This document shows, piece by piece, positions 3,543 to 59,181 of a stretch of DNA of 59,356 nucleotides (the stretch's first letter is position 1; each line of letters begins with the position of its first letter). This DNA is from Planctomycetales bacterium (GTDB taxonomy: Bacteria; Planctomycetota; Phycisphaerae; SM23-33), in NCBI GenBank assembly GCA_030592655.1, contig JAUVIQ010000001.1, forward strand, positions 1 through 59,356, given 5' to 3'. The position numbers and the translations under genes are program-made. Under the pieces are notes generated by a model. The model saw only the letters and a list, made by a program, of their open reading frames with translations. It was not told where the DNA came from and searched no databases.

Positions 3543-3654
3543 CGGGCCGAAACGGAACGAAACGGGCCAATTCGGGCCGAAACGGAACCATTGGGAACCA
3601 TTGGGGCCAATTGGGAACCGTTGGGGCCAATTCGGGCCAATTCGGGCCAATTGC
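3543..3654. repeat. degenerate decamer tandem repeat (about 11 units, GGGCCAATTC / GGGAACCATT / GGGCCGAAAC)
   Basis: Read directly from the sequence. It begins 30 nt after the tyrA stop. The AATT/AAAC cores recur about every 10 bp. Confidence 0.8.
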
Positions 3655-3826: not shown

Positions 3827-3946
3827 TGTCTTCACTTGTCAAAGATTTCACTGGGGCGCTATATCGCCCCTTGCCACGGCGTAGTCCCTTGGCGTCTGCT
3901 CGCCGTCCCAGGGGGGACGAAGCCGGGTCTCTATATTAACTTTTGC

Positions 3947-3974
3947 GTTCGCGTTTGCGCGCGCAAACGCGAAC
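3947..3974. repeat. perfect 28-bp palindrome GTTCGCGTTTGCGC|GCGCAAACGCGAAC
   Basis: Read directly from the sequence. A half-copy (cgttcgcgtttgcgcgcgca) recurs near 4053-4072. Confidence 0.85.
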
Positions 3975-4239
3975 ACAAAACGGATTGCGACGACATAAGT
4001 CCTTGGTGGCTATGGGAAAAGTTTTTTTTGATTTTTTCGTCTCCCCGATTTTTACGTTCGCGTTTGCGCGCGCAGATTGGAGCGCAAGCGGAAATCCCCT
4101 GGGGACGTGAACGGATAGATTTTTATATTGGCGTGCTAGCCGCGACCGGTAGGAAGCGGGATATTTCGCCGACACCGTTGAGTCAAACCCGCTCGTTCCC
4201 ACTCGCGGCTAACCGTAGGCTTCAATTGCGCCTGAACGG

Positions 4240-5196: not shown

Positions 5197-5438
5197 GAAA
5201 ACTAATGTGTCCTATGGAAAGAAAATACCTGATTTGTATTGAGAAGGCCGAAGGCAGTAACTACTCGGCGTATGTGCCGGACTTGCCGGGATGTATCGCT
5301 TGTGGGGATACTTTAGAGGAAACCAAGCGTCTTATCGCCGAAGCCATCGACCTGCACATCCGAGGCATGGATGAGGACGGTGAGCCTGTCCCGGAGCCTA
5401 CGACCGAAAGCGATTATGTTACAGTCCATGCGGCATGA
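5193..5438 (+). CDS. hicB: type II antitoxin HicB, short form (UPF0150-type domain only)
   Basis: YSAYVPDLPGCIACGDTLEE...AIDLHI pattern. It overlaps the hicA stop. The true start could be an internal Met at 5205 or 5214. Confidence 0.8.
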   Translation: MRKLMCPMERKYLICIEKAEGSNYSAYVPDLPGCIACGDTLEETKRLIAEAIDLHIRGMDEDGEPVPEPTTESDYVTVHAA

Positions 5439-5575
5439 TCAGAAGCAAGTGCCGTGGCCGATGCGTCCACGCCTTCACCCCTGCCCGCCATTTCGGTTCA
5501 ATCTGTTTTCAGACCCATCGGGTCGTCTTTCTTAGCCACGGGCGGGTAGCCCGTGGACAAATTCGCCCAGCAAAA

Positions 5576-5651
5576 CAAGCCCCATCGGGGCGTCTTATCT
5601 AATCGCAACGCATATTGCGTCAATGATGCCAAGACGCCCCGATGGGGCTTG
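5576..5651. repeat. REP-like palindromic unit (21-bp arms caagccccatcggggcgtctt / aagacgccccgatggggcttg)
   Basis: The arms are perfectly complementary, with an inner mini-hairpin acgca-tat-tgcgt. Smaller palindromes flank it at 5536-5556 (ccacgggcgggtagcccgtgg) and at about 5672-5691 (ccccaggcttccgcctgggg). Confidence 0.75.
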
Positions 5652-5752
5652 TGCATATTGTGCGTCCCTTCACCCCAGGCTTCCGCCTGGGGCTAAGAAA
5701 GGCACCGCTAACGCGGCTGGAAAGTCGGAAACCGTCCCGGTTGTTATCAGTA

Positions 5753-9946: not shown

Positions 9947-9971
9947 AGGTGGTCACAAATTGTGACCACCT
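9947..9971. repeat. 25-bp palindrome AGGTGGTCACAA-A-TTGTGACCACCT
   Basis: The arms are 12 bp and perfect. Related imperfect copies lie at about 10016-10044 and 10364-10391. Confidence 0.8.
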
Positions 9972-10016
9972 CTCAAGGCAAGATGCGGAGACGGAACACT
10001 TGGTATAAGTCACGCT

Positions 10017-10367
10017 TTGAGGTCACAAATTGCGACCTCAAAAGGAGGCCGTGGCGGCAGACGAACTTTACCCTACGCCTTCACCGAGCACGGGGCCATC
10101 ATGGCTGCAAGCGTGCTGAACACCGAACGGGCGGTCAAGGTGAGCGTGTACGTCGTCAGGGCATTCGTAAAACTCCGGGAAATGCTCTCGACCCACAAGC
10201 AATTGGCCCAGAAACTCGCAGAACTGGAACGAGGCCTCCAAAAACACGACCACCAGATTCTCGCCCTGGTCGAAGCCATACGACAACTCATGGAACCGCC
10301 GCCCGAACCCAAACGAAAACCCATCGGCTACGCTACAGAGTGCGAAGAACGCAAAAAGAAGCGATGA
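10017..10367 (+). pseudogene. ORF6N-family protein remnant (N-terminal domain missing, no ATG start)
   Basis: RSQIATSKGGRGGRRTLPYAFTEHGAIMAASVLNTERAVKVSVYVVRAFVKLREML matches the conserved central and C-terminal part of ORF6N proteins. The ORF begins at a TTG, and the usual N-terminal domain of roughly 60-70 aa is absent. Confidence 0.5.
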
Positions 10368-10398
10368 AGTCGCAGAATGCGACCTCAAAAACATCACG

Positions 10399-25848: not shown

Positions 25849-25934
25849 GGACGGAGCGAAGCGGAGTCCCCCCTTTTTTTTAAAGCGAGCAGGGCATAGG
25901 GCGTGAAAATTAAGGTGGGACTCCGCTTCGTTCC
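25849..25934. repeat. palindromic element (arms ggagcgaagcggagtccc / gggactccgcttcgttcc)
   Basis: Read directly from the sequence. It shares the agcgaagcggag core with the 44014 and 50022 elements. Confidence 0.7.
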
Positions 25935-35067: not shown

Positions 35068-35307
35068 ATGGAACATGAACATAAATATCTGGAGTACCTG
35101 GTGGTGATCGAGCGTGCCGACGACGGTAGTTACAGCGCTTACGTGCCCGACCTGCCGGGATGTGTTGCCTGTGGACAGGATACGCCCGAACAGGCCAAGG
35201 AATTAATCCGCGAAGCAATCGATATCCATATTCAGGGTATGATCGAAGATGGCGATCCGGTTCCCGAACCGGTCTCGAAGGCCGAATATGTCAGCGCCTC
35301 AGCGTAA
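35068..35307 (+). CDS. hicB: type II antitoxin HicB, short form (second copy)
   Basis: YSAYVPDLPGCVACGQDTPEQAKELIREAIDIHI. It is a paralogue of 5193-5438. Confidence 0.8.
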   Translation: MEHEHKYLEYLVVIERADDGSYSAYVPDLPGCVACGQDTPEQAKELIREAIDIHIQGMIEDGDPVPEPVSKAEYVSASA

Positions 35308-39900: not shown

Positions 39901-42221
39901 TCAACCTTTATCGCATCGGCTGGGCATACTCTCATGCACGTTCCGCAGCGGATGCACTTTTCGACGTCGATTTCGTGTTTCTCATGCGGCTTCATTTCGA
40001 TGGCGTCGGCGGGGCAATGCTGGGCGCAGAGCGTACAGCCGATGCAATCGTCGGTAATCACGTACTTTATCAGGTCTTTGCATACTCCGGCGGGGCACAC
40101 CCCGGCCAGGTGCGCTTCGTACTCGTCGCGGAAGTATCGCAGCGTCGAGATGACCGGATTGGGCGCGCTCTTGCCGAGTCCGCAGAGGCTGGATTTACCG
40201 ACCGCGCCGGCAAGGTGCTCCAGTCTCTCCAGGTCGTCGCCGCGACCTTCGCCTGAGCAGATGCGGTTGAGTATGTCGAGCATTTGGCGTGTTCCGATTC
40301 GGCAGAAGGTGCACTTTCCGCATGACTGGTCCTGCGTGAACGCCAGGAAGTAGCGTGCGATATCGACCATGCAATCGGTCTCGTCCAGCACGACCAGTCC
40401 GCCCGACCCCATAAACGCCCCGACGCCGACGAGCGATTCGTAATCGATCGGCGTGTCGGCCAATGACGCCGGGATGCATCCGCCCGATGGTCCGCCGATC
40501 TGAACGGCTTTGAATGCTTTGGAGTCGATGATCCCGCCTCCGATTTGTTCGACTATTTCGTGGATGGTAATCCCCATCGGCACCTCGACGAGTCCGCCTC
40601 GAACGACCCTTCCGGCCAGGGCGAAGACCTTTGTGCCCTTGCTCAGGTCCGTCCCCGTATCCGAGAAGGCCCCGGCTCCGTTGCGGATAATCCAGGGGAC
40701 CATCGAGAATGTTTCAGTGTTGTTGACGAGGGTGGGTTTTCCGTTCAGCCCGCTTTGGGCAGGGTACGGCGGGCGCGGGCGAGGCATCCCCCGCCGACCT
40801 TCGATGGACGCGATAAGGGCGGTCTCTTCGCCGCAGACGAAAGCGCCGGCCCCCGGGACAATCCGCAAACGCAGTTTTGGGCCAAGCAAATTCCGCTGCC
40901 GGCACTGCTCGATTGCGTCTGTCATCCGTTTTATCGCCAGGGGATATTCGGCGCGGATATAGAAAATTCCCTCGTCGGCCCCGACGGCGTAAGCGGCGAT
41001 TACCACCCCCTCGATTATCCGATAAGGTTGACTTTCCAGCAGCAGGCGGTCCATGAACGCGCCGGGGTCGCCCTCGTCGCCGTTGCAGATGATGTATTTC
41101 TTTTCGCCATGCGCCTGACGGACGTGCAGCCATTTCAGACCCGTTACAAATCCCGCTCCGCCCCTTCCTCGAAGACCGCTGCGCGTAATCTCGTCGATGA
41201 CCTGTTCGGGCGATAATTCGTCGGTGCATTTCCGCAATGCCTCGAACCCGCCGCCGGAGATGTATTCGTCCAGGTCAGCCGGGTCGGCGCTTCCGGCCTG
41301 CTCGGTGGCGATCCGCTTCTGCGGGCCTGTGAACTCGGAAATAATCGCCTCGCGGACGTCCGTCGAATATCGCGTAACAGGCTCCCAGGCGTCGTCGGTG
41401 AGAATGTTTTCGAGGATGTGCGACGCAGACGTTTTGATTTTCCGCATGATTCCCCCGGGCCTGAAGTGTCGCAGGACGATTGCCTCGGCGTCTTCGGGTT
41501 TTACGCCCGCGTACAACGACGGCGGCAGGCCCGGAAGGACAACCTCCACCAGCGGCGTTATGTAACTCATGCCCGTGCATCCGACCCGCTTGACAGAGGC
41601 TCGCGCGCCGGAGCGTGCCACAGCCTCGCACAACGCCTCATACACCGCGCCGCATCCCCGCGCGATGCAGCACGTATCGAGACTGATGCGAATCTCCCCG
41701 ACTTCCGCGCCGGGTTCGACGGGGCGGGCCTTGCGATGAACCCGACGGGACTGAAGGTTCAGAAAATCCCGCACCGCATCGGCGGCGGTGTCGCCGGAAA
41801 GGTGGCCGTAGGTTACGTCGCCGATCTGCACCACCGGAGCGAGCGAGCAGCAGCCAAGGCAGGCGACCTTCTCGACGGTGAACACTCCCGCCGCGTCGGT
41901 GTCGTCGTCGGGCGGGATGTCCAGATGGCGGCAGAATCCGTCGTGAACCGCGCCGGCGCCCTGGACGTGGCAGGCGGTTCCCACGCAGACGCGGATTGTG
42001 TGCTCACCGGCAGGACGATGGCGAAACTGCGTATAAAACGTTGCGACGCCCTCAATCCGCGCCGGCGTAATCTCGCTAATCTCGCAGACCCGCTCCAGGA
42101 CCTCGCGCGGCAGGTAACGATAATGCTCCTGAATCGCCTGGAGGATCGGTATCACCGCGTCGGGATTTTGCCCGATTCGCTCGATAAGACCGTCCACAAA
42201 TGTCAAATCCGCCTGATTCAT
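39897..42221 (-). CDS. NuoE-NuoF fusion flavoprotein (NADH-binding, HydB/HydC- or Bfu-type) with C-terminal 2x[4Fe-4S]
   Basis: NuoE-like CVGTACHVQGAG...CLGCCSLAPV. NuoF motifs GLRGRGGAGFVTGLKW, ICNGDEGDPGAFMDR and SCGKCTFCRIG. C-terminal CIGCTLCAQHCP and CIRCGTCMRVCP. The start is set to MNQADL (42221), which makes an ATGA overlap with the upstream gene. Confidence 0.85.
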   Translation of the reverse strand: MNQADLTFVDGLIERIGQNPDAVIPILQAIQEHYRYLPREVLERVCEISEITPARIEGVATFYTQFRHRPAGEHTIRVCVGTACHVQGAGAVHDGFCRHLDIPPDDDTDAAGVFTVEKVACLGCCSLAPVVQIGDVTYGHLSGDTAADAVRDFLNLQSRRVHRKARPVEPGAEVGEIRISLDTCCIARGCGAVYEALCEAVARSGARASVKRVGCTGMSYITPLVEVVLPGLPPSLYAGVKPEDAEAIVLRHFRPGGIMRKIKTSASHILENILTDDAWEPVTRYSTDVREAIISEFTGPQKRIATEQAGSADPADLDEYISGGGFEALRKCTDELSPEQVIDEITRSGLRGRGGAGFVTGLKWLHVRQAHGEKKYIICNGDEGDPGAFMDRLLLESQPYRIIEGVVIAAYAVGADEGIFYIRAEYPLAIKRMTDAIEQCRQRNLLGPKLRLRIVPGAGAFVCGEETALIASIEGRRGMPRPRPPYPAQSGLNGKPTLVNNTETFSMVPWIIRNGAGAFSDTGTDLSKGTKVFALAGRVVRGGLVEVPMGITIHEIVEQIGGGIIDSKAFKAVQIGGPSGGCIPASLADTPIDYESLVGVGAFMGSGGLVVLDETDCMVDIARYFLAFTQDQSCGKCTFCRIGTRQMLDILNRICSGEGRGDDLERLEHLAGAVGKSSLCGLGKSAPNPVISTLRYFRDEYEAHLAGVCPAGVCKDLIKYVITDDCIGCTLCAQHCPADAIEMKPHEKHEIDVEKCIRCGTCMRVCPADAIKVE

Positions 42222-43996
42222 CGTTTCGCGCCGCTTATACAAAACAGATGCTTTTCACCTCGTATGTAAATCCGCCCGTCCATAAAGGCCGGGGTCGCAT
42301 AAACTTTTTCGCCCAGTTCGCTCCGGGCGATTTCCTTATATTTCCGGTCCGCCTCGATGATGATTGTTACGCCGTCGATGCTGATAAGATAAACCCGCTC
42401 GCCGACAATAGAGGGCGAGGCGTTGATTTCCATATCCAGTTCCCTGTCCCAGACCATGTTACCGGCTTGGATGTCGTAGCAGGTCAGCGTTCCGTAGGTC
42501 TCCATCAGCCAGAGGAGTTTTCCGTCGCTGACGGGTGAGCAGATGTCCGGCAGGCCGTCGATGGCCGTCCATGCGATGTGGGTTTTTGTAACGTCGCCAC
42601 TGCCGTCGGGCCTGATTGCGGCGACGACCGCGTTGGTGTTAACGGCGAAGACCATTCCACCGGCGTAGATCGGGCAGGGCGCTACGTCGCCGTCGAGGCA
42701 CTTCGCACGCCACAGTTCAGACCCGTCGGCGGGGCTGTAGGAAATCACCCACGGGTTGCCGCAGGTGATTACCTGTTCGCGTCCGCCGGCGTTGATAACA
42801 ATCGGCGAAGACCACGAATCGGGAACAGGCCGCTCTTTCGACCAGACATCATCACCGGTCAGTGCGTCCAGCGCGAGGAGTTCCGATTTGCCTTCTCCTT
42901 CCCGACCCTGGTCGAATTTCACCAGCAGCAGGTTCCGCCACATCGTCAGCGACGTGGAGTGGCCATACATATTGTCCGGCAGGCCGAGGTTCATCGCCCA
43001 AAGCCGCTCGCCGTCGAAATCGAAACATATCAAATCACCGTTGGCGAATATCGCATATACCCGCTGACCGTCAGCCACCGCTGTCGGCGCGGCATAGCAG
43101 GCCCCCAATTCCTCTGAAATCCTCGGCGCCTTTGCGACGCTGCCGGGAACGTTCGCTACGTCCCGCTGCCACAGCAACTCGCCCGAATCGGCGTCGAAAC
43201 AATAGACCTGGCGTTTGTCCATTGTCGCTCCGGTCAGGAAGATTCGATTACCCCAGACGACCGGGGAATTTTTACCCGCCAGCGGAACCGGCGCCTTCCA
43301 GAGAACACCCTCGCCGCTCTTCGCGTTCCATTTCGACGGCACGTTCGTATATGCCGATATTCCCAACCCGCCGGGTCCGCGAAATCGAGGCCAATTCCTG
43401 CCGATTTCCTCAGCCGAGCCGAAGCGGACAACCAGCGGAGGCGGTTTTTCGACATCCTTGACGGCAGTGGGAAAACCCTCTATCGGCACGATGAAGGCCA
43501 GCACCGTCGCACCGCCGAGAATCGCCAGCCCCGCCGCTGCGACCGACCATCGGGCAAACGTACCGGCGCGAACCTCCGCCCGTTCCTGATCGCCCGGCGG
43601 AGCGGGGCCGGAAATAGTCTTGCGACAACCGACAGCCACCCCAACCGACACCAGCAAAACCACAATGCCGCCAAGCAACAGCCACCCACCACGAACTCCG
43701 AACGCCTGCCTGCGGAAATACTCCTCGCGCAATTCCAAGTCCATCCGCCGGACTTTGCTCTTGAGTTGCTCGTCGTTCGGATAGGTCTGCAATTTGGCTT
43801 TGAGCGCCACGAACTGCTCGGAGTCCAGCGGGTCGGAGACGTCGCTGTGAAAATAGTTTTGGATAAGCCCAACGCAGACAACCACGCAAAAGACGCCCGC
43901 AACGATGGCGCACGCCACGCTAGCGCGATACCATGTGGAAGCAGGAACGGTATTTTCGGATTTGTCGTCAACCATTATATTCATTCGCATAAGCAC
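42218..43996 (-). CDS. membrane-anchored PQQ-like (BamB-type) beta-propeller repeat protein
   Basis: An N-terminal TM segment and a second TM, then repeated motifs of the form VYCFDADSGELLWQ. Confidence 0.75.
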   Translation of the reverse strand: MLMRMNIMVDDKSENTVPASTWYRASVACAIVAGVFCVVVCVGLIQNYFHSDVSDPLDSEQFVALKAKLQTYPNDEQLKSKVRRMDLELREEYFRRQAFGVRGGWLLLGGIVVLLVSVGVAVGCRKTISGPAPPGDQERAEVRAGTFARWSVAAAGLAILGGATVLAFIVPIEGFPTAVKDVEKPPPLVVRFGSAEEIGRNWPRFRGPGGLGISAYTNVPSKWNAKSGEGVLWKAPVPLAGKNSPVVWGNRIFLTGATMDKRQVYCFDADSGELLWQRDVANVPGSVAKAPRISEELGACYAAPTAVADGQRVYAIFANGDLICFDFDGERLWAMNLGLPDNMYGHSTSLTMWRNLLLVKFDQGREGEGKSELLALDALTGDDVWSKERPVPDSWSSPIVINAGGREQVITCGNPWVISYSPADGSELWRAKCLDGDVAPCPIYAGGMVFAVNTNAVVAAIRPDGSGDVTKTHIAWTAIDGLPDICSPVSDGKLLWLMETYGTLTCYDIQAGNMVWDRELDMEINASPSIVGERVYLISIDGVTIIIEADRKYKEIARSELGEKVYATPAFMDGRIYIRGEKHLFCISGAKR

Positions 43997-44013: not shown

Positions 44014-44126
44014 GGGTGGCACCTTCAACCGTAGCGAAGCGGAGGTTGTGGGTGCTGGATGGGCAAAATGTAAAGCACCCACAAGCTCCGCTCCACTTCG
44101 TTCCGCTGCGCTTGAAGGTGCCACCC
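44014..44126. mobile_element. 113-bp palindromic (MITE/REP-like) element, intergenic copy
   Basis: 15-bp perfect terminal arms gggtggcaccttcaa / ttgaaggtgccaccc and inner arms gcggaggttgtgggtgct / agcacccacaagctccgc. It is near-identical to 50022-50135 except for the loop. Confidence 0.75.
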
Positions 44127-44132
44127 GGTCAT

Positions 44133-45461
44133 TTATTTATTTTCCCTTATCCGTTTTAATCGCGCTTGTTCGCGCGGACAGTGGGCGAAGCATCGTCCGC
44201 AGGCAAGACAGTCGGCACGGTCGGCTTCGTAGTCGTCCCGCCTTCGACGGATGGAAAATCGAATCATCTTCAACATCACTACAAGCGCGATGAACGCGCC
44301 CAACAACCGGGCTCCGAGGAGAAACTCTCCACGTTTGCCCGAAGCCTCTTCGTAAAGTTCAGCCACAGGCCTGCGGCTTTCGCGAAAGACCTCACTGGCA
44401 TCGGTGGTCCCTTTGATTTTTCCTGCATCTTCGTCCCGGATGCGTTCGGCCAGGCGGATTGTCGGATTTCTGCGAGACAGAACGGGCGAGACCCGCCCGC
44501 CCAACCAGCCGCCGACAGCAACCATCACCGGCAGCAGGAGAATCAGCGCCGCCAGCCGGCCTTTGCCTTCGCTCCGGCTGACGTTTTTTCGGCGGGTTGG
44601 TTTATTTATGGCTCCGAACGGACAGGCGTCCTCGCACAAGCGGCACTGGATACACTCATCCGGCGTGATGGTTACTCGCCAACGGGAAAAGCGGCTGAGG
44701 ATACGCAACAACGCTCCGTAGGGGCAGACGAACCGGCAATAAACCCTGCCGATAAAGGCGCTTATCAATAAGACGCACGCGCCCAGCGCAAGGAGGTTGA
44801 AACGTCCGCCCAAATCCCACCCCGGCCAGGAACCGTCCTGGATAATCGCCTGTCCCCATTTACCAAGCGGAACCAGGCGGAAGAATCCGACGAACGGGTC
44901 GAGCCGGCAGATGATAAACGCGCTGCCGGTGGCCGCCATCAGAACCGCCAGACCAAGATAGACATACGGCAAAATCCCCAGCGCGTGGGCCAGCCAGGCC
45001 GGGACTTTGAGAGGTTTGACAAGCACGACGTCCTGGATCGCTCCAAGCGGGCAAACGGCTGCACAAAAGACCCGCCCGAAAAAGAGCGTGAACACCAGCG
45101 GCAGGGCGAAGAAGGCGATAATCGCCGCCGGGACGACATACCCGCTGTCGAACAGGCCCAGCGTAACATTCTGTATCGACCCGACCGGACAGACGCACCC
45201 GCCTCGCCAGAAGCCGAAATACAACAGCGAAAAAATCGTCAGCGCGAGCAAGCCTCGCCGCGAACGCCTTTTCAACGCCAGGTACGCCGCCAGCGCCATC
45301 GCCGCCGCCAGTACCGCTACGTCAATATATTCAAAAATATCGCTCTGCGGCGCCGGCGTTGTCGTATCGGGCCGGTCATACCATTTCGGCAGTTTCGCCG
45401 CAGCCAAGGCGACGCTCGCCGAAACAGTTAGCACAATCAGAAAGAGAATCAATCGTCTCAA
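44133..45461 (-). CDS. NapH/MauN/NosH-family membrane polyferredoxin
   Basis: CX3CP motifs at TM ends (FCAAVCPLGAIQD, YCRFVCPYGALL), GCVCPVGSIQ, and cytoplasmic CIQCRLCEDACPFGAI and CLACGRCFAHCP. Confidence 0.75.
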   Translation of the reverse strand: MRRLILFLIVLTVSASVALAAAKLPKWYDRPDTTTPAPQSDIFEYIDVAVLAAAMALAAYLALKRRSRRGLLALTIFSLLYFGFWRGGCVCPVGSIQNVTLGLFDSGYVVPAAIIAFFALPLVFTLFFGRVFCAAVCPLGAIQDVVLVKPLKVPAWLAHALGILPYVYLGLAVLMAATGSAFIICRLDPFVGFFRLVPLGKWGQAIIQDGSWPGWDLGGRFNLLALGACVLLISAFIGRVYCRFVCPYGALLRILSRFSRWRVTITPDECIQCRLCEDACPFGAINKPTRRKNVSRSEGKGRLAALILLLPVMVAVGGWLGGRVSPVLSRRNPTIRLAERIRDEDAGKIKGTTDASEVFRESRRPVAELYEEASGKRGEFLLGARLLGAFIALVVMLKMIRFSIRRRRDDYEADRADCLACGRCFAHCPREQARLKRIRENK

Positions 45462-47298: not shown

Positions 47299-48725
47299 TT
47301 TTTTCTAACATCCAGGCATATCATTGTCTTGGAATCCCGCACGATAAGCCTACCGCCGGCGATGGCCATCGGCGCCCAGGAATCTTTTCCCGAAAGCACC
47401 TTCGCCCGCGCCAATTGCCTGTAACCTTTCGGCGTCGCCTCAAGTAGCGTCAGCACGCCGTGATCGTCCGTAACAAAAATCTTTCCGTCGGCGATAATGT
47501 AAGGCCCGCCGAAGGGTCCGAAACGATTGGCCGCTCCGCTGGTCCAGACCTGCCGGCCTTGAAGGTTCAGGCAAACCATCTGTTCTTTTAACTCACCTGC
47601 GTCCTTGCTTGTTACGCCGAAAATATGGTCTCGATGGAAGATGGGCGTCTGCATCTCGGAGCCGAAGACCTTCTGCTTCAGTTCGAAGAGTTTCTTCGGG
47701 ACGATTTTACCGTCCCGCTCGGTCAGCCGGATCATCATGCTTCCCGCGCGGTATCCGCCGGTCAGGAATATCCGCCCATCCGGAACGATTACCGGCGAGG
47801 GGGCATTGGAGGTGGGGACCCGCCAGCCGGGGTACTCCCAGAGGATTTTCCCATCAGCCGCCGATACCCCAACCACTCCGCCGCTTGCGCAATAGACATA
47901 CATTCGCTTACCGCCCCACATCATCGGCGTAATAGACGAGTGTGTCATTTTCCACGAGTGCGGGTTGGGCGCTTTCCAGAGGACCTTACCCGTGGCGCAA
48001 TCGACGGCGATCATCATGCTGCTGCCGGCCGGGGCGATAATGGCTTTGCCGTCGTCAATCATCGGGCATTGGGAGGTGTACCACAGCGGGACTTTCGTAC
48101 CGTATTCATGCACCAGGTCGATCCCCCAGAGGAATTTTCCGCTTTGCGCGTCGGCGCACATGACATGGCATGCCGGGCCGATGGTTACGACGAATTTTTC
48201 GGTAACCGCCGGTACGGTCCGGCTGATACCGTGCTGACTGGAAAGAGGGACCTTATACCCAAGCCGCCATATTTCCTTCCCGTCGGCCAGCGACAGGCAC
48301 CGCAGCGTGTCGGCCTGTTCGTCCTCGTCGTAATCGAGGACATAGACCTTCCCGCCGAGAATTGCCGCCCCGGCGTACCCTTCGCCCATTTCGACCGACC
48401 AGAGCGCCGGCGGACCTGTCTTGTCCCAGGTCTTGGCCAGCGGGACGGTTTCGGTGCTTATGGTGTCGAAATTGCTCCCACGGAACCTCGGCCAAGCGCC
48501 GGGCAGGTTCGCCGCCTTTCCGGCCCCTGCGACAAAGACAGGCGGAAAAACCGGAACGTGCTCGATCAGGGCGGACTGTTCAACAACCGGTAATCTCGGA
48601 TCGACATCCATTCCGGGCCCGCCCCGGAGCCACAGATTCAACAGGACCGCCCCGGCAGCGGCGACCGAAGCCGGTATCAATATCCCGATAATGACGGAAA
48701 CGATTTTCATAATTGGTTTATTCAC
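47295..48725 (-). CDS. membrane-anchored PQQ-like beta-propeller repeat protein
   Basis: An N-terminal TM, then PQQ-type repeats (LRCLSLADGKEIWR, VMCADAQSGKFLWG, IAVDCATGKVLWK). Confidence 0.75.
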   Translation of the reverse strand: MNKPIMKIVSVIIGILIPASVAAAGAVLLNLWLRGGPGMDVDPRLPVVEQSALIEHVPVFPPVFVAGAGKAANLPGAWPRFRGSNFDTISTETVPLAKTWDKTGPPALWSVEMGEGYAGAAILGGKVYVLDYDEDEQADTLRCLSLADGKEIWRLGYKVPLSSQHGISRTVPAVTEKFVVTIGPACHVMCADAQSGKFLWGIDLVHEYGTKVPLWYTSQCPMIDDGKAIIAPAGSSMMIAVDCATGKVLWKAPNPHSWKMTHSSITPMMWGGKRMYVYCASGGVVGVSAADGKILWEYPGWRVPTSNAPSPVIVPDGRIFLTGGYRAGSMMIRLTERDGKIVPKKLFELKQKVFGSEMQTPIFHRDHIFGVTSKDAGELKEQMVCLNLQGRQVWTSGAANRFGPFGGPYIIADGKIFVTDDHGVLTLLEATPKGYRQLARAKVLSGKDSWAPMAIAGGRLIVRDSKTMICLDVRKK

Positions 48726-51700
48726 CTCTCAGCGCCGATAATATCTCCCCGCGCAATGCCGACGCGGTCGCCAGATATATCCACAATATCCCCCCGCAGG
48801 CCACTGCTGCAAGCGTCAGCAGCAGCGAAAGACCGGGCACAGCGCCGCCGGATGAACGAAGCACGGGTATAACCGCCACAAAACCGGACAACGAACCGCA
48901 CAATAAACCCATCGCCAGCAGGACAGAATGTTCGTAAAGCACCATCCGATATAGCACGGACCTGGAGAATCCCACAGCCTGAAGCAGCGCCAATTCGCCC
49001 CGGCGCTCCAACACATTCCGCAACACCACCACGCCAAGCCCCACGCTTCCCAACAGCAGCCCAAGTGAGCCCAAGGCCTGGAATATCGAAAGATAAGTAT
49101 TGCGAACGGCGTAAAAAGCGGCCAGCCTGTCGGTCGTCGGAGTCAATTCCAGACCGACGTCGGCGAGGCCGGGATCGGCGGTAAGCGTCCGTGTCAGGCT
49201 TTCGACCTCGCTGGGTGGGGCGTCTATCAGGAACGCGCGATAGCCGCTTTCGGAACCGAAATGCCCGGTGAAATTCCGCTCGGAAATTATCAGCCCGCCC
49301 TGAAGAATCGACCCTGCCAGCGCGCCGACCAGACGAATCCGAAATGTTTTTCCCCGCTCGTCGGTGTAAGCGAGCGTATCGCCGACGGATTTGCCCAATG
49401 CCCAGACGATAGTAGCCTGGTCGGCGACGGCGGGGGTCGCGCCGTCGGTCTCTATGCGGTTCAGAAGCCGCCACGGATCGTCGGTTTTTCCGATGGTCTT
49501 CGCGAAGGTGAACCGCCCACGCAGTTGTCCGGGTTCGACGCCCATAATCCTCGGCCTTTGCGGACGGTTGAGGTTGAGGCAGCTGGCGTCGTCGCCGTCG
49601 TGGATGCGGAACCGGACGCCTTCGGTCTCGTCGAGGTCGTCCGGAACCGGCAGCGCGCTCTCGCCGTACAGTGCGAACCCGCCGGTCGGCGAGGAAGATT
49701 TTCCGGTGTCCGTAAGGGGGTTTTTCCGATTAGCGCCGACAGCGACGATAAGAAAAACCCCGCACGCCAACAGCGCCACCGTCGCAAGCGACCGCCCCGG
49801 CCGACGGCCTGTATTTCGCATAGACAGACCGGCCAGTGTCATTTCCACAGAACGTGATAATCTTGATATCCACGCACGGACAAATGCCAAAGAGCCAATG
49901 AGCAGAACAGCGCCGGCCGCGAAGAAAACCGTCGGTGCATATCTGTCGTTCCCTGCGCTCACCGCAAGTATCGCAACCGCTGCGCCCACCGCAACCAAAC
50001 CGAACCATAAACCGAAATGTCGGGTGGCACCTTCAACCGGAGCGGAGCGGAGGTTGTGGGTGCTGGATGAACTGTGGAGCAGAGCACCCACAAGCTCCGC
50101 TTCACTTCGTTTCGCTCCGCTTGAAGGTGCCACCCGACCGCCGGTGAGCAACTGCCTTGCCGATAATGTCATCTGGCCTCGAAGCGTTATCCACATCGCC
50201 GCCAGCGCAATCAGCACGCCGGAGACACCTCCGACGGCAAGCGTCATCGGCTCGACGCCGAAGCGGATTGTCGATGTCCCCGCCGCTGCACCGGTCCAGA
50301 CGGTTCCCAGACCAAGGATAATCGCCTTTGTGTACATCAGCCCGGCAAACGTACCGATAACGCCGCCGATTAACGCCAGAACTCCACCTTCAGCCAGCAT
50401 CAGCCGGCGCACCTGGCCAGGCCTGAAGCCCATCGCCAGAAGCGTACCGACCTGCTCGGACCGCTGCTGGACGCCGAAGACGAACAGCAACCCCACCAGC
50501 AGCGCCGCCGATGCCATCAGGAAGAAACTCATCCCCAGGAACAGCGAACCAAAGTTCAGCGATTTTTTACCGGCGGCCACGGCTTCAGCGCGGACAGGGC
50601 GGAAGAACAGGCCCACCGATGCAGGATCAATCTCCGCCCGAAGCATGTCGCCCCGTACCCGGCTCGATACGGTGGACAGCGGGAAACGAATCGCCGTCAG
50701 GCCACCGAAGCGATTGGACCACATTTTCTTACCGGCCCGAAGTGTGACGAAGGCTTTGGGCGTGCCGCCGTAGCGGTTCCAGTAATCTTCGTCTTTGTCT
50801 CTGACCCTGCGCGGGTCGAAGTATTTCCCCGGCTTCCAGTCTTTGCAGTTTTTGACGCCGGTGATGCCGGGGAATTTCGGCATCAGTTCCCTGTCAGCAT
50901 CGCGTACATCCATCGAAGTGATGCGGCGAACGCGAAATTTACTTGTGCGAGTCTGAAGTTTCCGCGTCGGAGAGATAACGAAATACTCAAGTTCAATCTC
51001 ATCGCCGACCTTCGCTTGCAGATCGTCGGCGAGCCACTTGTTGATATTAATCTCATCGTCTTTGATGTCGAACGACAAACCGGGATGCTCTAAGCCCAGG
51101 GGTTCGAATCCCTGGGTTTCTTCTCGATTACCGAGCGGTCCCATCGCCGTTACCATCGAGTAAGGCGTCTTACGTTTTCCGCATCGAATTTCAGTAACGA
51201 AATATGTCAGTATGCCGTCGGCAGAGGGAATGATTTTCTTCGCCGCCTGCTCGACGGGATGCTCAATGAACACGCGGTCCGTGCGAAACTCGCCGTAACC
51301 GCCGGGTAATTCTCGCACTTCCAGTTCGGCGTCGGCGAGTTTCCAGTGCTTTCGCATAGCAGCGCCGGCCGACTTGGGATTTATTTTCGCGCCCTTGCCG
51401 AGAAGGAGCATATTCGCTCGCCCGGGGCGGTCTATCGCAGACTGTAATATCTCCAGCGGGACGAAAGCCGTCATTGGTGCGACCTGTTCCGCCCGGAGGC
51501 TGAAGCGTCCGAATTGGGATTCCGAAGCAACGGCTTTGACGGTCAGTCGCATCGCAACGGCGGTTTCGGCATCGCCCGACATTGGTGCATCGTTCGGCAT
51601 CAGGCCCGGCTTGCGGATGCGAAGGACGATACTGTCGCCGGGGCGAACGCCGAGCCTCCGGGCAAGCGGTTCGTTCAGGACAACCTCGCGGCTGGCCTTG

Positions 51701-52080
51701 CCGTCCAGCAGGACGTCTGCGCCCCCCAGGCGCCAGAACCGCTTATCGACTCCGAGGACACCAAGACGGTTGGCACGGGTATGGGTTTCGGAGTTGACGG
51801 CTGTGGCGTTCAGGTGAATTACCGGCGCGGCGCCGGCGTCCAGTTCGCCGGCGATCTCGTCGGCCAGTTCGGCGCGGAAGAACCTTTCCGGTGAAGCGAC
51901 GGCGAGAGTTACCTCTCCAAGGCGGCGTTCGGCGACGGCTTCGAGACTGAACTTCACCGAATCGCCGACTGCCAGCGCGCCGACCAGAACGGCCGTTCCG
52001 ACCGCGACGCCCGCGACGACGCCCAAATGCCCGCGCAGATAAAATCGCAGGCTGCGAAATATCAGCCTCCAGGTCGTCAT
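48718..52080 (-). CDS. ABC transporter permease with two FtsX domains (YbbP/MacB-type)
   Basis: 1120 aa. Two blocks, each of a TM helix, a large extracytoplasmic domain and three TM helices. It is coupled by ATGA to the ATPase gene. Confidence 0.85.
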   Translation of the reverse strand: MTTWRLIFRSLRFYLRGHLGVVAGVAVGTAVLVGALAVGDSVKFSLEAVAERRLGEVTLAVASPERFFRAELADEIAGELDAGAAPVIHLNATAVNSETHTRANRLGVLGVDKRFWRLGGADVLLDGKASREVVLNEPLARRLGVRPGDSIVLRIRKPGLMPNDAPMSGDAETAVAMRLTVKAVASESQFGRFSLRAEQVAPMTAFVPLEILQSAIDRPGRANMLLLGKGAKINPKSAGAAMRKHWKLADAELEVRELPGGYGEFRTDRVFIEHPVEQAAKKIIPSADGILTYFVTEIRCGKRKTPYSMVTAMGPLGNREETQGFEPLGLEHPGLSFDIKDDEININKWLADDLQAKVGDEIELEYFVISPTRKLQTRTSKFRVRRITSMDVRDADRELMPKFPGITGVKNCKDWKPGKYFDPRRVRDKDEDYWNRYGGTPKAFVTLRAGKKMWSNRFGGLTAIRFPLSTVSSRVRGDMLRAEIDPASVGLFFRPVRAEAVAAGKKSLNFGSLFLGMSFFLMASAALLVGLLFVFGVQQRSEQVGTLLAMGFRPGQVRRLMLAEGGVLALIGGVIGTFAGLMYTKAIILGLGTVWTGAAAGTSTIRFGVEPMTLAVGGVSGVLIALAAMWITLRGQMTLSARQLLTGGRVAPSSGAKRSEAELVGALLHSSSSTHNLRSAPVEGATRHFGLWFGLVAVGAAVAILAVSAGNDRYAPTVFFAAGAVLLIGSLAFVRAWISRLSRSVEMTLAGLSMRNTGRRPGRSLATVALLACGVFLIVAVGANRKNPLTDTGKSSSPTGGFALYGESALPVPDDLDETEGVRFRIHDGDDASCLNLNRPQRPRIMGVEPGQLRGRFTFAKTIGKTDDPWRLLNRIETDGATPAVADQATIVWALGKSVGDTLAYTDERGKTFRIRLVGALAGSILQGGLIISERNFTGHFGSESGYRAFLIDAPPSEVESLTRTLTADPGLADVGLELTPTTDRLAAFYAVRNTYLSIFQALGSLGLLLGSVGLGVVVLRNVLERRGELALLQAVGFSRSVLYRMVLYEHSVLLAMGLLCGSLSGFVAVIPVLRSSGGAVPGLSLLLTLAAVACGGILWIYLATASALRGEILSALRGE
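50022..50135. mobile_element. 114-bp palindromic element inserted in frame inside the permease CDS
   Basis: It belongs to the same element family as 44014-44126. 114 bp equals 38 codons, translated as RVAPSSGAKRSEAELVGALLHSSSSTHNLRSAPVEGAT, located between the two FtsX halves. Confidence 0.75.
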
Positions 52081-52808
52081 TTCAGACTATCTTTCTCGAC
52101 GAGCACGCCGTCGGTCAGTTCGAGCATTCGGTCCATCCGGCCGGCAAGGTCTGTCGAATGCGTTACGACGATCAACGCAGTTCCTTCTTCGCGGTTCAGT
52201 TCGACCATTAGTTCGGCGAGGTTATCCGAGGCGGCCTGGTCCAGCGAGCCTGTCGGCTCGTCGGCAAGCAGCAATTTCGGGGCGTTGATAAGCGCTCGAA
52301 CGACGGCGACTCGCTGGCGTTCGCCGCCGGAGAGTTGCCCGGGACGATATGAAACTCGCCCGGTAAGCCCGACCCGCTCCAGCAGCCTTTGGGCCCGCTC
52401 GGCAGCGCCGTCCCGGTCAGTTACAAGCGTCGGTACGAGGACATTTTCCAGAACAGTGCATTGCGGCAGAAGATGATGGAGTTGGAAGACGAAGCCTATT
52501 TGCCGGCTTCGGATGGCTGCGAGGGATTTTTCATCCTGTTGCGAGAGGTCCTGACCGTTCAACATTACCCGCCCGGAGGTGGGCTTATCCAGCGAACCGA
52601 TGATATTCAGCAGCGTGCTTTTACCCGAGCCGGAAGGACCGACAATCGCCACCGACTCGGCGGCATCGACCTGAAGCGAAAGACCCTTGAGAACCTCCGT
52701 CGCCGAAGCGATACCGGGAGAATCGTAACGTTTGTATATGTCAGTCAGTTCCAGAAGCGGGTTGGGCGACATGATTTTATCCTGATTGTCATTTTGGTCC
52801 GAAGGCAT
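52077..52808 (-). CDS. ABC transporter ATP-binding protein (LolD/MacB/YbbA-like)
   Basis: Walker A GPSGSGKSTLLN, signature LSGGERQRVAVVRAL and Walker B LLLADEPTGSLD. The start may be the internal Met at 52772. Confidence 0.9.
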   Translation of the reverse strand: MPSDQNDNQDKIMSPNPLLELTDIYKRYDSPGIASATEVLKGLSLQVDAAESVAIVGPSGSGKSTLLNIIGSLDKPTSGRVMLNGQDLSQQDEKSLAAIRSRQIGFVFQLHHLLPQCTVLENVLVPTLVTDRDGAAERAQRLLERVGLTGRVSYRPGQLSGGERQRVAVVRALINAPKLLLADEPTGSLDQAASDNLAELMVELNREEGTALIVVTHSTDLAGRMDRMLELTDGVLVEKDSLK

Positions 52809-54024: not shown

Positions 54025-54026
54025 CG

Positions 54027-54136
54027 GTAATTTGTAATTGGTAATTCGTAATTCGTAATTGGTGATTCGTGATTCTTAATTGGTAACAGAGCGTCGGTTT
54101 TTTTTACTAATTACCAATTACGAATTACCAATTCAC
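54027..54136. repeat. heptamer-stutter hairpin (GTAATTS units)
   Basis: Left arm gtaattt gtaattg gtaattc gtaattc gtaattg gtgattc gtgattc ttaattg gtaac. Loop with T8. Right arm ttaccaattacgaattaccaattcac, complementary to the left arm. The right arm overlaps the pseudopilin stop codon. Confidence 0.8.
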
Positions 54137-58987: not shown

Positions 58988-59181
58988 AGCATTCAGCATT
59001 CAGCAATCAGCAATCAGCAGTCAGCAGTCAGCAAAAACCCAATAAACAAATGGCCTGAACGCTGACGGCTGAACGCTCATTTAGCATTCAGCATTCAGGT
59101 GCAGGCCTTGTTTCTTTTCTTTATCTTTTGCTGACAGCCGAACGCTGACGGCTGAACGCTTTTTCTCCTGACCGCTGAATG
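58988..59181. repeat. nested heptamer-stutter hairpins (gcattca/gcaatca/gcagtca versus tgctgac/gaacgct/gacggct)
   Basis: Six tandem heptamers lie at 58988-59032. An inner hairpin pairs 59053-59076 with 59082-59098. A complementary array lies at 59126-59181. An additional hairpin ctgtctgaaa/tttcagacag lies at 59182-59205. Confidence 0.7.

Follow-up and report, generated by a model that had tools for sequence, protein, structure and literature searches.

An in-frame palindromic segment in a planctomycetal ABC permease gene is probably a copy of a dispersed REPIN-like repeat family

The minus-strand gene of a MacB-type double-FtsX ABC permease from a Planctomycetales bacterium (assembly GCA_030592655.1, contig JAUVIQ010000001.1) contains a 114-nt palindromic segment that is read in frame and without a stop codon. 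The DNA studied comprises positions 1-59,356 of this contig and is referred to as the window. What is this segment, and how can a coding sequence accommodate it? We consider it probable that the segment is a copy of a dispersed, non-coding family of nested palindromic repeats, each member being a tail-to-tail doublet of repetitive extragenic palindromes (REPs), i.e. a REPIN, and that the family has spread by a mechanism of the HUH Y1 type. Both the mobility itself and the transposase step are what we infer from the observations described below.

Two copies of one nested palindrome were found in the window, one within the permease gene (50022-50135, 114 nt) and one between two genes (44014-44126, 113 nt). 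As the first-pass annotation had described, they share their arms and differ in their loops: identity amounts to 96% over 48 nt in the left arms and to 94% over 54 nt in the right arms, whereas the central loops are unlike each other. The 15-nt terminal arm GGGTGGCACCTTCAA has four exact matches in the window, which are both ends of each copy, and a fifth does not appear in the 59 kb even if 3 mismatches are allowed. Both copies also contain the inner arms TTGTGGGTGC and GCACCCACAA, the outer and inner arms being separated by 17 nt on one side and by 27 nt on the other. In the intragenic copy stem P1 consists of the outer 5' arm GGGTGGCACCTTCAA (50022-50036), which includes a GTGG head, and the outer 3' arm TTGAAGGTGCCACCC (50121-50135). 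Stem P3 consists of the inner 5' arm TTGTGGGTGC (50054-50063) and the inner 3' arm GCACCCACAA (50084-50093), which flank a variable central loop, or spacer (50064-50083). Between outer and inner arms lie module A, CCGGAGCGGAGCGGAGG (50037-50053, 17 nt), and module B (50094-50120, 27 nt), the latter being the complement of module A plus a 10-nt bulge, CACTTCGTTT. Since family variants of 104 nt lack this bulge, it looks like a 10-nt duplication. The intergenic copy has the same architecture, with outer arms at 44014-44028 and 44112-44126 and inner arms at 44046-44055 and 44075-44084, and starts 6 nt past the stop codon of the minus-strand gene upstream.

Folding calculations, including the minus-strand RNA, agree with a strongly structured element. 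As RNA, the window copies fold with -71 to -81 kcal/mol (z -9 to -12) on either strand and as DNA with -44 to -49 kcal/mol (z about -11); none of 200 shuffled sequences folded as stably. In the cold-seep sequencing runs that hold the window, the element is covered 10-20 times as deeply as its flanks. Many Logan contigs match the arms only and continue into unrelated sequence, with breaks exactly at 50022 and 50135/50136, and the loose ends of these contigs fix the boundaries of the intragenic copy.

The host gene (48718-52080, minus strand) encodes a permease of 1120 aa, full length and colinear with its orthologues, in which Pfam recognizes MacB_PCD and two FtsX stretches. The gene of the partner ABC ATPase (52077-52808, minus strand) overlaps its start. 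Within the permease the element reads RVAPSSGAKRSEAELVGALLHSSSSTHNLRSAPVEGAT without a stop and supplies residues 649-686 (RVAPSS...VEGAT); the 38 stop-free codons lie in the linker between the FtsX halves. A search of a protein index returned 2891 relatives of the permease at E <= 1e-20, the closest of which have 73%, 69% and 68% identity and lengths of 1103-1112 aa. In an alignment of 20 sequences the 38-residue segment is missing from all 19 orthologues, i.e. none of them carries a homologous segment. The idea of an insert of 38 residues thus holds for its frame and for the lack of a counterpart in orthologues, but not for its net size: the three closest orthologues show a gap of 30 columns at this site, and the net gain over them is 30 residues, not 38. 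Between the motifs LL(T/A)G and GLW, these three have a linker of 12 residues between transmembrane segments 4 and 5 (TM4-TM5), of which the window permease retains outside the element only G...RHF (4 residues). The closest orthologue of all (P0002, DAOWOP010000059.1) belongs to the metagenome-assembled genome (MAG) CSMAG_3057, which has at least 11 copies of the repeat elsewhere. The empty permease site in this genome is therefore not explained by absence of the family.

A hydropathy scan of the permease gives ten TM segments, which correspond to two sets of four helices of the FtsX type, each bearing a large external domain, and two linking helices. The insert lies in a loop of 57 residues (632-688) that follows TM4 and contains 7 Lys and Arg versus 3 Asp and Glu residues. 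In MacB-type proteins the chain leaves TM4 on the cytoplasmic side. Because of this position and the positive-inside charge, the loop between TM4 and TM5 is assigned to the cytoplasm in our topology model. An AlphaFold2 prediction on the same alignment (mean predicted local distance difference test score, pLDDT, 67; predicted template modelling score, pTM, 0.55) places helices on either side of the insert, and pLDDT falls below 50 at exactly residues 648-686. Low values are expected here, since the alignment consists only of gaps in this region, and the model is consistent with a floppy loop without proving it. The suggestion of a tolerated cytoplasmic loop fits both models. Most likely, the intragenic copy is without function for the protein and is simply tolerated, although the strong hairpin in the open reading frame (ORF) could slow ribosomes between the two FtsX halves.

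Further copies were sought with the paired-arm pattern GGCACCTTCAA-N70-100-TTGAAGGTGCC. One genome per GTDB species was scanned, which yielded 57 loci (numbered with the prefix L, as are those that follow), and the same pattern gave 46 loci in JGI metagenome contigs. The copy numbers per source are lower bounds, because exact arms of 11 nt were demanded. Chance palindromes without the inner motifs were removed (L017, L020, L052, L066, L078, L080, L087, L088, L090-L092, L097, L098, L101, L106 and L108), which left 88 loci of other genomes and metagenomes with 92 copies in total. About 0.7 Mb of DNA around the copies was sampled in this way and is the basis of the searches for neighbouring genes and transposases. 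At least 92 members of the family were thus obtained, from six MAGs of Planctomycetota, from one that is labelled FCB group (at least 1 copy) and from many contigs of sediment and soil metagenomes, at loci with 49-72% G+C. The Planctomycetales MAGs CSMAG_2421, CSMAG_3057 and CSMAG_1454 hold at least 14, 11 and 2 copies, respectively; the 'Phycisphaerae' MAGs Zod_Metabat.1221 and Zod_Metabat.26 hold at least 14 and at least about 12, and Planctomycetaceae binchicken_co65_125 at least 2. No protein family recurs beside the copies in the sampled loci. Rfam 15 matched nothing in the window at the gathering threshold, and below it gave only generic microRNA-like hairpin matches. The exact string GGTGGCACCTTCAA was not found in the papers searched.

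All copies are arranged as GTGGCACCTTCAA - module A - TTGTGGGTGC - spacer - GCACCCACAA - module B - TTGAAGGTGCCAC (O5-I5-I3-O3). The four core motifs are essentially invariant across all lineages sampled, while the modules are not conserved (122 distinct ones of 7-41 nt) and the spacers (11-54 nt) are unlike each other. What the modules do keep is the ability to pair with themselves: at their outer six positions, pairing reaches 82% in the 67 modules outside the subfamily of the window and 72% in all 115 that were scored, whereas shuffling of the module partners (115 modules, 500 shuffles) gave a mean of 49% and a maximum of 54%. Several pair types occur at each module position. Since the modules are mostly self-complementary, most members are expected to fold as a four-way junction (P1, P2, P3 and P4). 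In the subfamily of the window, which is that of the CSMAG MAGs, modules A and B pair with each other instead, and the result is one long hairpin with the 10-nt bulge.

The outer motif and the inner one are variants of a single sequence (GCACCTTCAA versus GCACCCACAA) that differ at 2 conserved positions. Hence, each half of the element is an imperfect palindrome with a conserved 2-nt mismatch that follows an unpaired GTG(G), and GT directly precedes GGCACC at 171 of 176 ends, giving the GTGG head. Half-elements of 37-43 nt folded alone form an imperfect hairpin with one internal mismatch and an unpaired GTG head (-15 to -20 kcal/mol as DNA, z -5.6 to -7.8). In the mechanism that we propose, each half would thus be a REP, with the GTGG head preceding an imperfect palindrome GCACCTTCAA-[variable hairpin]-TTGTGGGTGC, and the two halves would be inverted around a variable spacer. 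Because of this inverted arrangement, a single strand may fold as two REP hairpins, as a four-way junction or, in the subfamily of the window, as one long hairpin. Copies would then spread by cutting and rejoining of single strands with recognition of the hairpins and without target duplication, catalyzed by an HUH Y1 enzyme that is either a REP-associated tyrosine transposase (RAYT) or IS200-like.

The permease is not the only gene with an in-frame copy. In the mnmA genes of CSMAG_3057 (L010) and CSMAG_2421 (L014) an orthologous copy is present in two species, and all three Pfam domains of MnmA are kept. The inserted peptide, GWHLQAERNEVERSLWV...LRLKVPP, separates the PRC-barrel domain from the C-terminal barrel and falls in a region that is about 34 residues longer than in E. 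coli MnmA (2DER). A membrane protein with Wzy_C and TPR domains (L033) contains RVAPSSVAERSEAELVGAS...VEGATR, which is the same frame (RVAPSS...VEGATR) as in the window permease. A membrane-like ORF of 275 aa with a copy (L036) has no Pfam match and is a candidate only. The spanning ORFs of L050 and L041 lack Pfam support and were treated as non-coding. Including the window, four to five of about 55 MAG copies are intragenic, which corresponds to three to four independent events. This count is restricted to copies with homology on both sides, since the element is open in most frames and context calls from ORFs alone therefore assign too many copies to the 'inside' class where a locus exceeds 60% G+C. 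On both strands, two of the three frames run through the arms without a stop, encoding GWHLQ...LKVPP and (R)VAPS...EGAT, while the third frame meets the TGA in TTGAAGG. Overall 54% of the frames are open compared with 38% in shuffled sequences, and four of six frames are open in 27 of 54 elements. With so many frames open, in-frame survival is not improbable; an intragenic insertion would survive only if it is in frame, stop-free and located in a tolerant loop. The peptide encoded by the element gave no candidate in a word-indexed search of an index of 5.8 billion proteins. Likewise, phmmer with the 42-aa window peptide found no match at E <= 0.001 among 1.84 billion representatives, but this query is too short for a database of that size, so that the result is no argument against in-frame copies.

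Several other explanations have to be weighed against these data. MAG contigs suffer breaks and false joins at repeats, and here L042 and L043 end close to copies and many Logan contigs do not extend past the element, so an assembler might have collapsed a repeat into the permease gene. Yet Logan contigs from other sequencing runs match both the gene-element and the spacer-element junctions with zero differences, which argues against an assembly artefact of this record. Moreover, the reading frame and the downstream protein alignment are preserved, and two independently assembled MAGs show the in-frame copy at the same mnmA codon. We therefore regard mis-assembly as very improbable. A lineage-specific expansion of the linker would dispense with an insertion altogether, if the likeness to 44014-44126 came from local duplication or gene conversion within the operon. 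The linker does vary in length among orthologues and the two window copies are only 6 kb apart, but the segment occurs in no orthologue, and some ninety further copies of the same architecture are found elsewhere, in other genomes and settings, and their arms deviate by no more than 1-2 nt from those in the window. Local gene conversion cannot explain the similarity in the face of these copies, which rule out this explanation for all practical purposes. The perfect 15-nt terminal inverted repeats (TIRs), the size of about 100-130 nt, the absence of coding capacity and the multiple copies would also suit a classical miniature inverted-repeat transposable element (MITE), i.e. a deletion derivative of an insertion sequence (IS) with a DDE transposase that is mobilized in trans via these repeats. 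Against this, flanking direct repeats of 2-9 nt do not exceed chance at any boundary offset in 87 copies, their counts being close or equal to the mean of the permutations and never outside the range of these. The lack of a target-site duplication argues against a DDE-type MITE and fits HUH-Y1 chemistry, which leaves no duplication, as is established for IS200/IS605 and presumed for RAYTs. In addition, the inner arm repeats the motif of the outer arm (GCACCTTCAA versus GCACCCACAA), a trait of REP doublets rather than of TIRs, and neither a full-length element with these termini nor a transposase recurs in the sampled loci. We consider a MITE quite unlikely. Overall, the interpretation in the first-pass annotation is supported: a homologous 38-aa segment in orthologous permeases, or a lack of further copies, would have spoken against it, and neither is seen.

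A more serious competitor follows from copies at orthologous sites. In the mnmA pair (L010/L014) the arms are identical at 92 of 92 positions, compared with 7 changes in the 22-nt spacer and 83% identity in the flanking coding DNA; at this divergence, arms free of any change would have a probability of about 4e-8 (0.83^92). In the L002/L029 pair the element is 95% identical (about 4 of 92 arm positions changed) versus 81-85% in the flanks, and in the L044/L094 pair the core is identical at 46 of 46 positions with a mean column identity of 85% over the whole alignment. Here module B is symmetrically extended or replaced (L044 3104-3203 versus L094 1-121) and the spacer differs, which suggests module turnover in situ or re-insertion. 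Accordingly, the repeat might be a structured nucleic-acid element maintained by the host, with the P1/P3 core as a binding site or an RNA or DNA device under purifying selection at each locus and with mobility secondary or extinct. This would account for a core that is invariant across lineages, across loci of about 49-72% G+C and across wholly different modules, for arm changes of 0/92, about 4/92 and 0/46 at the three orthologous sites against about 17% flank divergence, and for modules that keep their hairpin character despite sequence turnover. Family arms are also present in metatranscriptome contigs of the same study, where carry-over of DNA is possible. On the other hand, gene conversion among copies could equally give the conserved arms, and those in the metatranscriptomes may reflect DNA contamination of the RNA libraries. 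Further, the element is palindromic and occurs in both orientations in varied contexts (intragenic and, by crude calls, between co-directional, convergent and divergent ORFs), it has no consistent neighbouring gene and no Rfam family matches it. On balance host maintenance appears rather unlikely. We give no more credit to its most specific form, in which the P1/P3 core with exchangeable modules would be a selected four-way-junction device, recognized by a putative conserved Planctomycetota protein and maintained copy by copy even in coding sequence, instead of a decaying selfish insert; this form is prompted by the mnmA arms (92/92 at 17% flank divergence) and by module replacement with the core untouched.

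The interpretation as a REPIN spread by HUH-Y1 chemistry also has to cope with several observations that weigh against it. Arm conservation at the orthologous sites exceeds that of a decaying selfish insert; either purifying selection on each copy or gene conversion anchored on the invariant cores could be the cause. Long vertical persistence is, in part of the literature on REPINs, reported for them too. No cognate transposase was found in the roughly 0.7 Mb of sampled loci. The sole Y1_Tnp gene from a motif scan of all loci (L018 3571-4170, Pfam E 2e-8) lies 270 nt from a copy and is surrounded by four units of another REP, GTAGGGCGTGCAAC, which has a GTAG head. Empty-site alleles or excision joints were not seen in the short Logan contigs of six DNA runs, which cannot show their absence. 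In the subfamily of the window the modules form no separate hairpins, so the form with two REP hairpins is weak there. Finally, the permease linker outside the element is 8 residues shorter than in the orthologues. Either the insertion was hence not a clean addition of 114 nt, about 24 nt being lost with it, or the linker was already shorter or diverged.

At position -1 of the insertion sites A is avoided (3 of 115), but the surroundings of the boundaries do not reveal a broader target motif. Unpaired arms beside a transposase, as in a parent IS, were not found in the sampled loci, and the pattern for genomes and metagenomes was limited to gaps of 70-100 nt. The region L018 3560-4870 of Zod_Metabat.1221 has the appearance of a typical REPtron, with the RAYT-like Y1_Tnp gene and the four GTAGGGCGTGCAAC REPs, and adjoins an apparent 3' remnant of an AraC-type gene. 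The GTAGGGCGTGCAAC REP is dispersed in the Zod_Metabat.1221 genome and occurs in L012, L045 and L037 as well.

Among known systems, the closest are the REPINs or REP doublets (BIME-like) mobilized by RAYTs (TnpA_REP) (Bertels & Rainey 2011, PMC3116915, PMC3337134; Di Nocera et al. 2013, PMC3733652). A REPIN is defined by two inverted REPs with a variable spacer that form a hairpin as a single strand (PMC3337134), and GT[AG]G heads including GTGG variants, tail-to-tail (TT) dimers with variable spacers and heterodimers have been described (PMC3733652). The present family likewise consists of two short, inverted, imperfect palindromes, with a GTGG head as in most GTAG-20 units of Opitutus terrae (PMC3733652) and with the heads directed outward as in a TT dimer with variable spacer. 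It also shares the long hairpin of the single strand, tens of copies per genome mostly between genes, the lack of target duplication, the persistence at orthologous sites and the occasional intragenic units, which are documented for REPs (PMC3733652). In contrast, no RAYT flanked by the present units was found in the sampled loci, and each REP carries a large, variable apical hairpin module, which turns most members into four-way junctions. In most members the modules of the two halves are heterologous, and a core of 13+10 nt is common to very different lineages, whereas REP families are usually lineage-specific. Atypical high-copy structures presumably handled by HUH-Y1 enzymes are known from the same phylum, namely the class 3 TnpA_Y1 'REPtron-like' systems of Planctomycetes and Acidobacteria (Quentin et al. 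2018, PMC6006769). Their published description gives a 5' CnGA foot and no GT[AG]G, and class 3 genes did not turn up in the vicinity of the present element.

Bacterial MITEs such as Correia/NEMIS, ERIC, RUP and Nezha resemble the family in being small and non-coding, with terminal inverted repeats, co-transcription with neighbours and occasional in-frame fusions. They differ in that the present element shows no target-site duplication and no parent IS in the sampled loci, and a terminal motif that recurs inside the element is not characteristic of MITEs. The Rickettsia palindromic elements (RPE-1 to RPE-10; PMC10969869; cited in PMC3733652), with which the first-pass annotation had compared the insert, are palindromes of about 100-150 nt that lie in frame in functional genes, where they add a surface or loop peptide while the protein is kept. 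Because in-frame copies recur in other genes, this comparison is justified as an analogy, not as family membership. The likeness is one of behaviour, no sequence in common was noted, the phylum is another, and about 5 of about 55 MAG copies are intragenic here, whereas RPE-1 is frequently so. The family is best described as a REPIN-like repeat of Planctomycetota with occasional in-frame intragenic survivors, similar to RPEs in behaviour. Intragenic REPs, MITEs and RPEs are already documented (PMC3733652, PMC10969869), and the in-frame insertion of a palindromic repeat is thus known as a type of event. What goes beyond routine is a phylum-wide invariant core with swappable modules and the conservation of the arms even inside mnmA.

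Both window copies lie inside one long minus-strand operon and are thus presumably transcribed. The intergenic copy separates the gene of a 4Fe-4S (Fer4) protein upstream (44133-45461, minus strand) from that of a PQQ_2 beta-propeller downstream (42218-43996, minus strand). The syntenic loci L058-L062 have the common gene order ABC ATPase, permease, PQQ propeller, NHL, Fer4, Fer4, PQQ and NuoF-like, and none of them carries a copy of the repeat, whether at these two sites or elsewhere in the locus. In the relative L058 the Fer4 and PQQ genes overlap by 4 nt, compared with a spacer of 136 nt in the window that holds the 113-nt copy. The insertion would therefore have replaced a 4-nt translational overlap with a hairpin of -71 kcal/mol located 6 nt past the stop codon. 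Scans for a sigma-70-type promoter consensus and for an intrinsic terminator (GC-rich hairpin plus T run) were negative at either window copy; on the minus strand AATGCATGATT comes after the intergenic copy. In the metatranscriptomes of the same study, matches were confined to pieces of arms from other copies and to relatives of the operon genes with low identity, and these are of no use for mapping 3' ends. In enterobacteria, REP hairpins shield the upstream mRNA from 3' exonucleases, and REPs near stop codons can lower upstream translation. By analogy, the intergenic hairpin, for which the first-pass annotation had suggested a role as RNA stabiliser or attenuator, would modulate mRNA decay or translational coupling, and it probably uncouples the Fer4 and PQQ genes and shifts their relative mRNA stability. 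At 44127-44135, on the minus strand upstream of the copy, TAAATGACC keeps the stop-start order (TAA, then ATG), while L058 has an ATGA overlap. Reading from this ATG enters the element and ends at a TGA in its 3' arm. The start of the PQQ gene now apparently lies about 35 nt past the element, and the insertion may have displaced the original start codon.

Some further features of the copies deserve mention. In 5 copies (0.9 expected) the palindrome runs 3 nt past GGGTGG...CCACCC into the flanks, as in the window (GTC...GAC). These sites include window 50019-50138, L033 1311-1430, L036 1963-2083 and L002 610-729, and three of the five copies are in-frame intragenic ones (window, L033 and the candidate L036). 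In L013 the extension into the flanks amounts to at least 14 nt. Complex variants (L008 4108-4255, L051 7097-7218 and L077 11676-11801) contain at their head 2-3 tandem 5' arms together with the start of module A, with a period of 24-27 nt, and L067 (205-547) has two whole elements 233 nt apart within a tandem duplication. The heptamer GCGAAGC is the entire module A in L075, L085, L099, L103 and L109 and is also part of the intergenic module of the window (44034-44040). As DNA, d(GCGAAGC) is an exceptionally stable mini-hairpin. Apices of the type cGAAg are common in the modules and would fit a single-stranded DNA form; the complement is on the opposite strand, so there is no strand bias.

Modules are apparently not confined to this family. 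Another inverted repeat of the window (25853-25934; arms GGAGCGAAGCGGAGTCCC and GGGACTCCGCTTCGTTCC) shares the GGAGCGAAGCGGAG module of the element, and modules of the GGGACTCCGC type are also present in the family members L079 and L089, which suggests an exchange of modules between repeat families. The window is rich in other short repeats, located at 3544-3653, 3941-4087, 5575-5652, 9948-10390, 54026-54133 and 58990-59098. Their kinds comprise a 10-nt periodic GGGCCGAAAC/GGAACGAAAC array, TTTTGCGTTCGCGTTTGCGCGCGCAAACGCGAAC palindromes, a perfect 22-nt inverted repeat, three TGAGGTCACAAATTGCGACCTCA palindromes, a AATTGGTAATTCGTAATT inverted repeat and runs of the heptamer CATTCAG. Two 80-nt stretches (5226-5305 and 35095-35174) are 70% identical and by eye encode YL..IE.A..G.YSAYVPDLPGC, which we take to resemble the N-terminus of HicB-type antitoxins.

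The repeat described here extends the REP/REPIN/RPE phenomenon to uncultivated Planctomycetota of cold seeps and other sediments, and shows that a MacB-type double-FtsX permease, MnmA and a Wzy_C/TPR protein all tolerate in-frame palindromic inserts. Since it fragments MAG assemblies and inflates predicted proteins, annotators should mask it. With its invariant core, swappable modules and orthologous copies, the family provides a clean natural data set for the question whether REPIN copies are kept by selection, by gene conversion or by continuing transposition.

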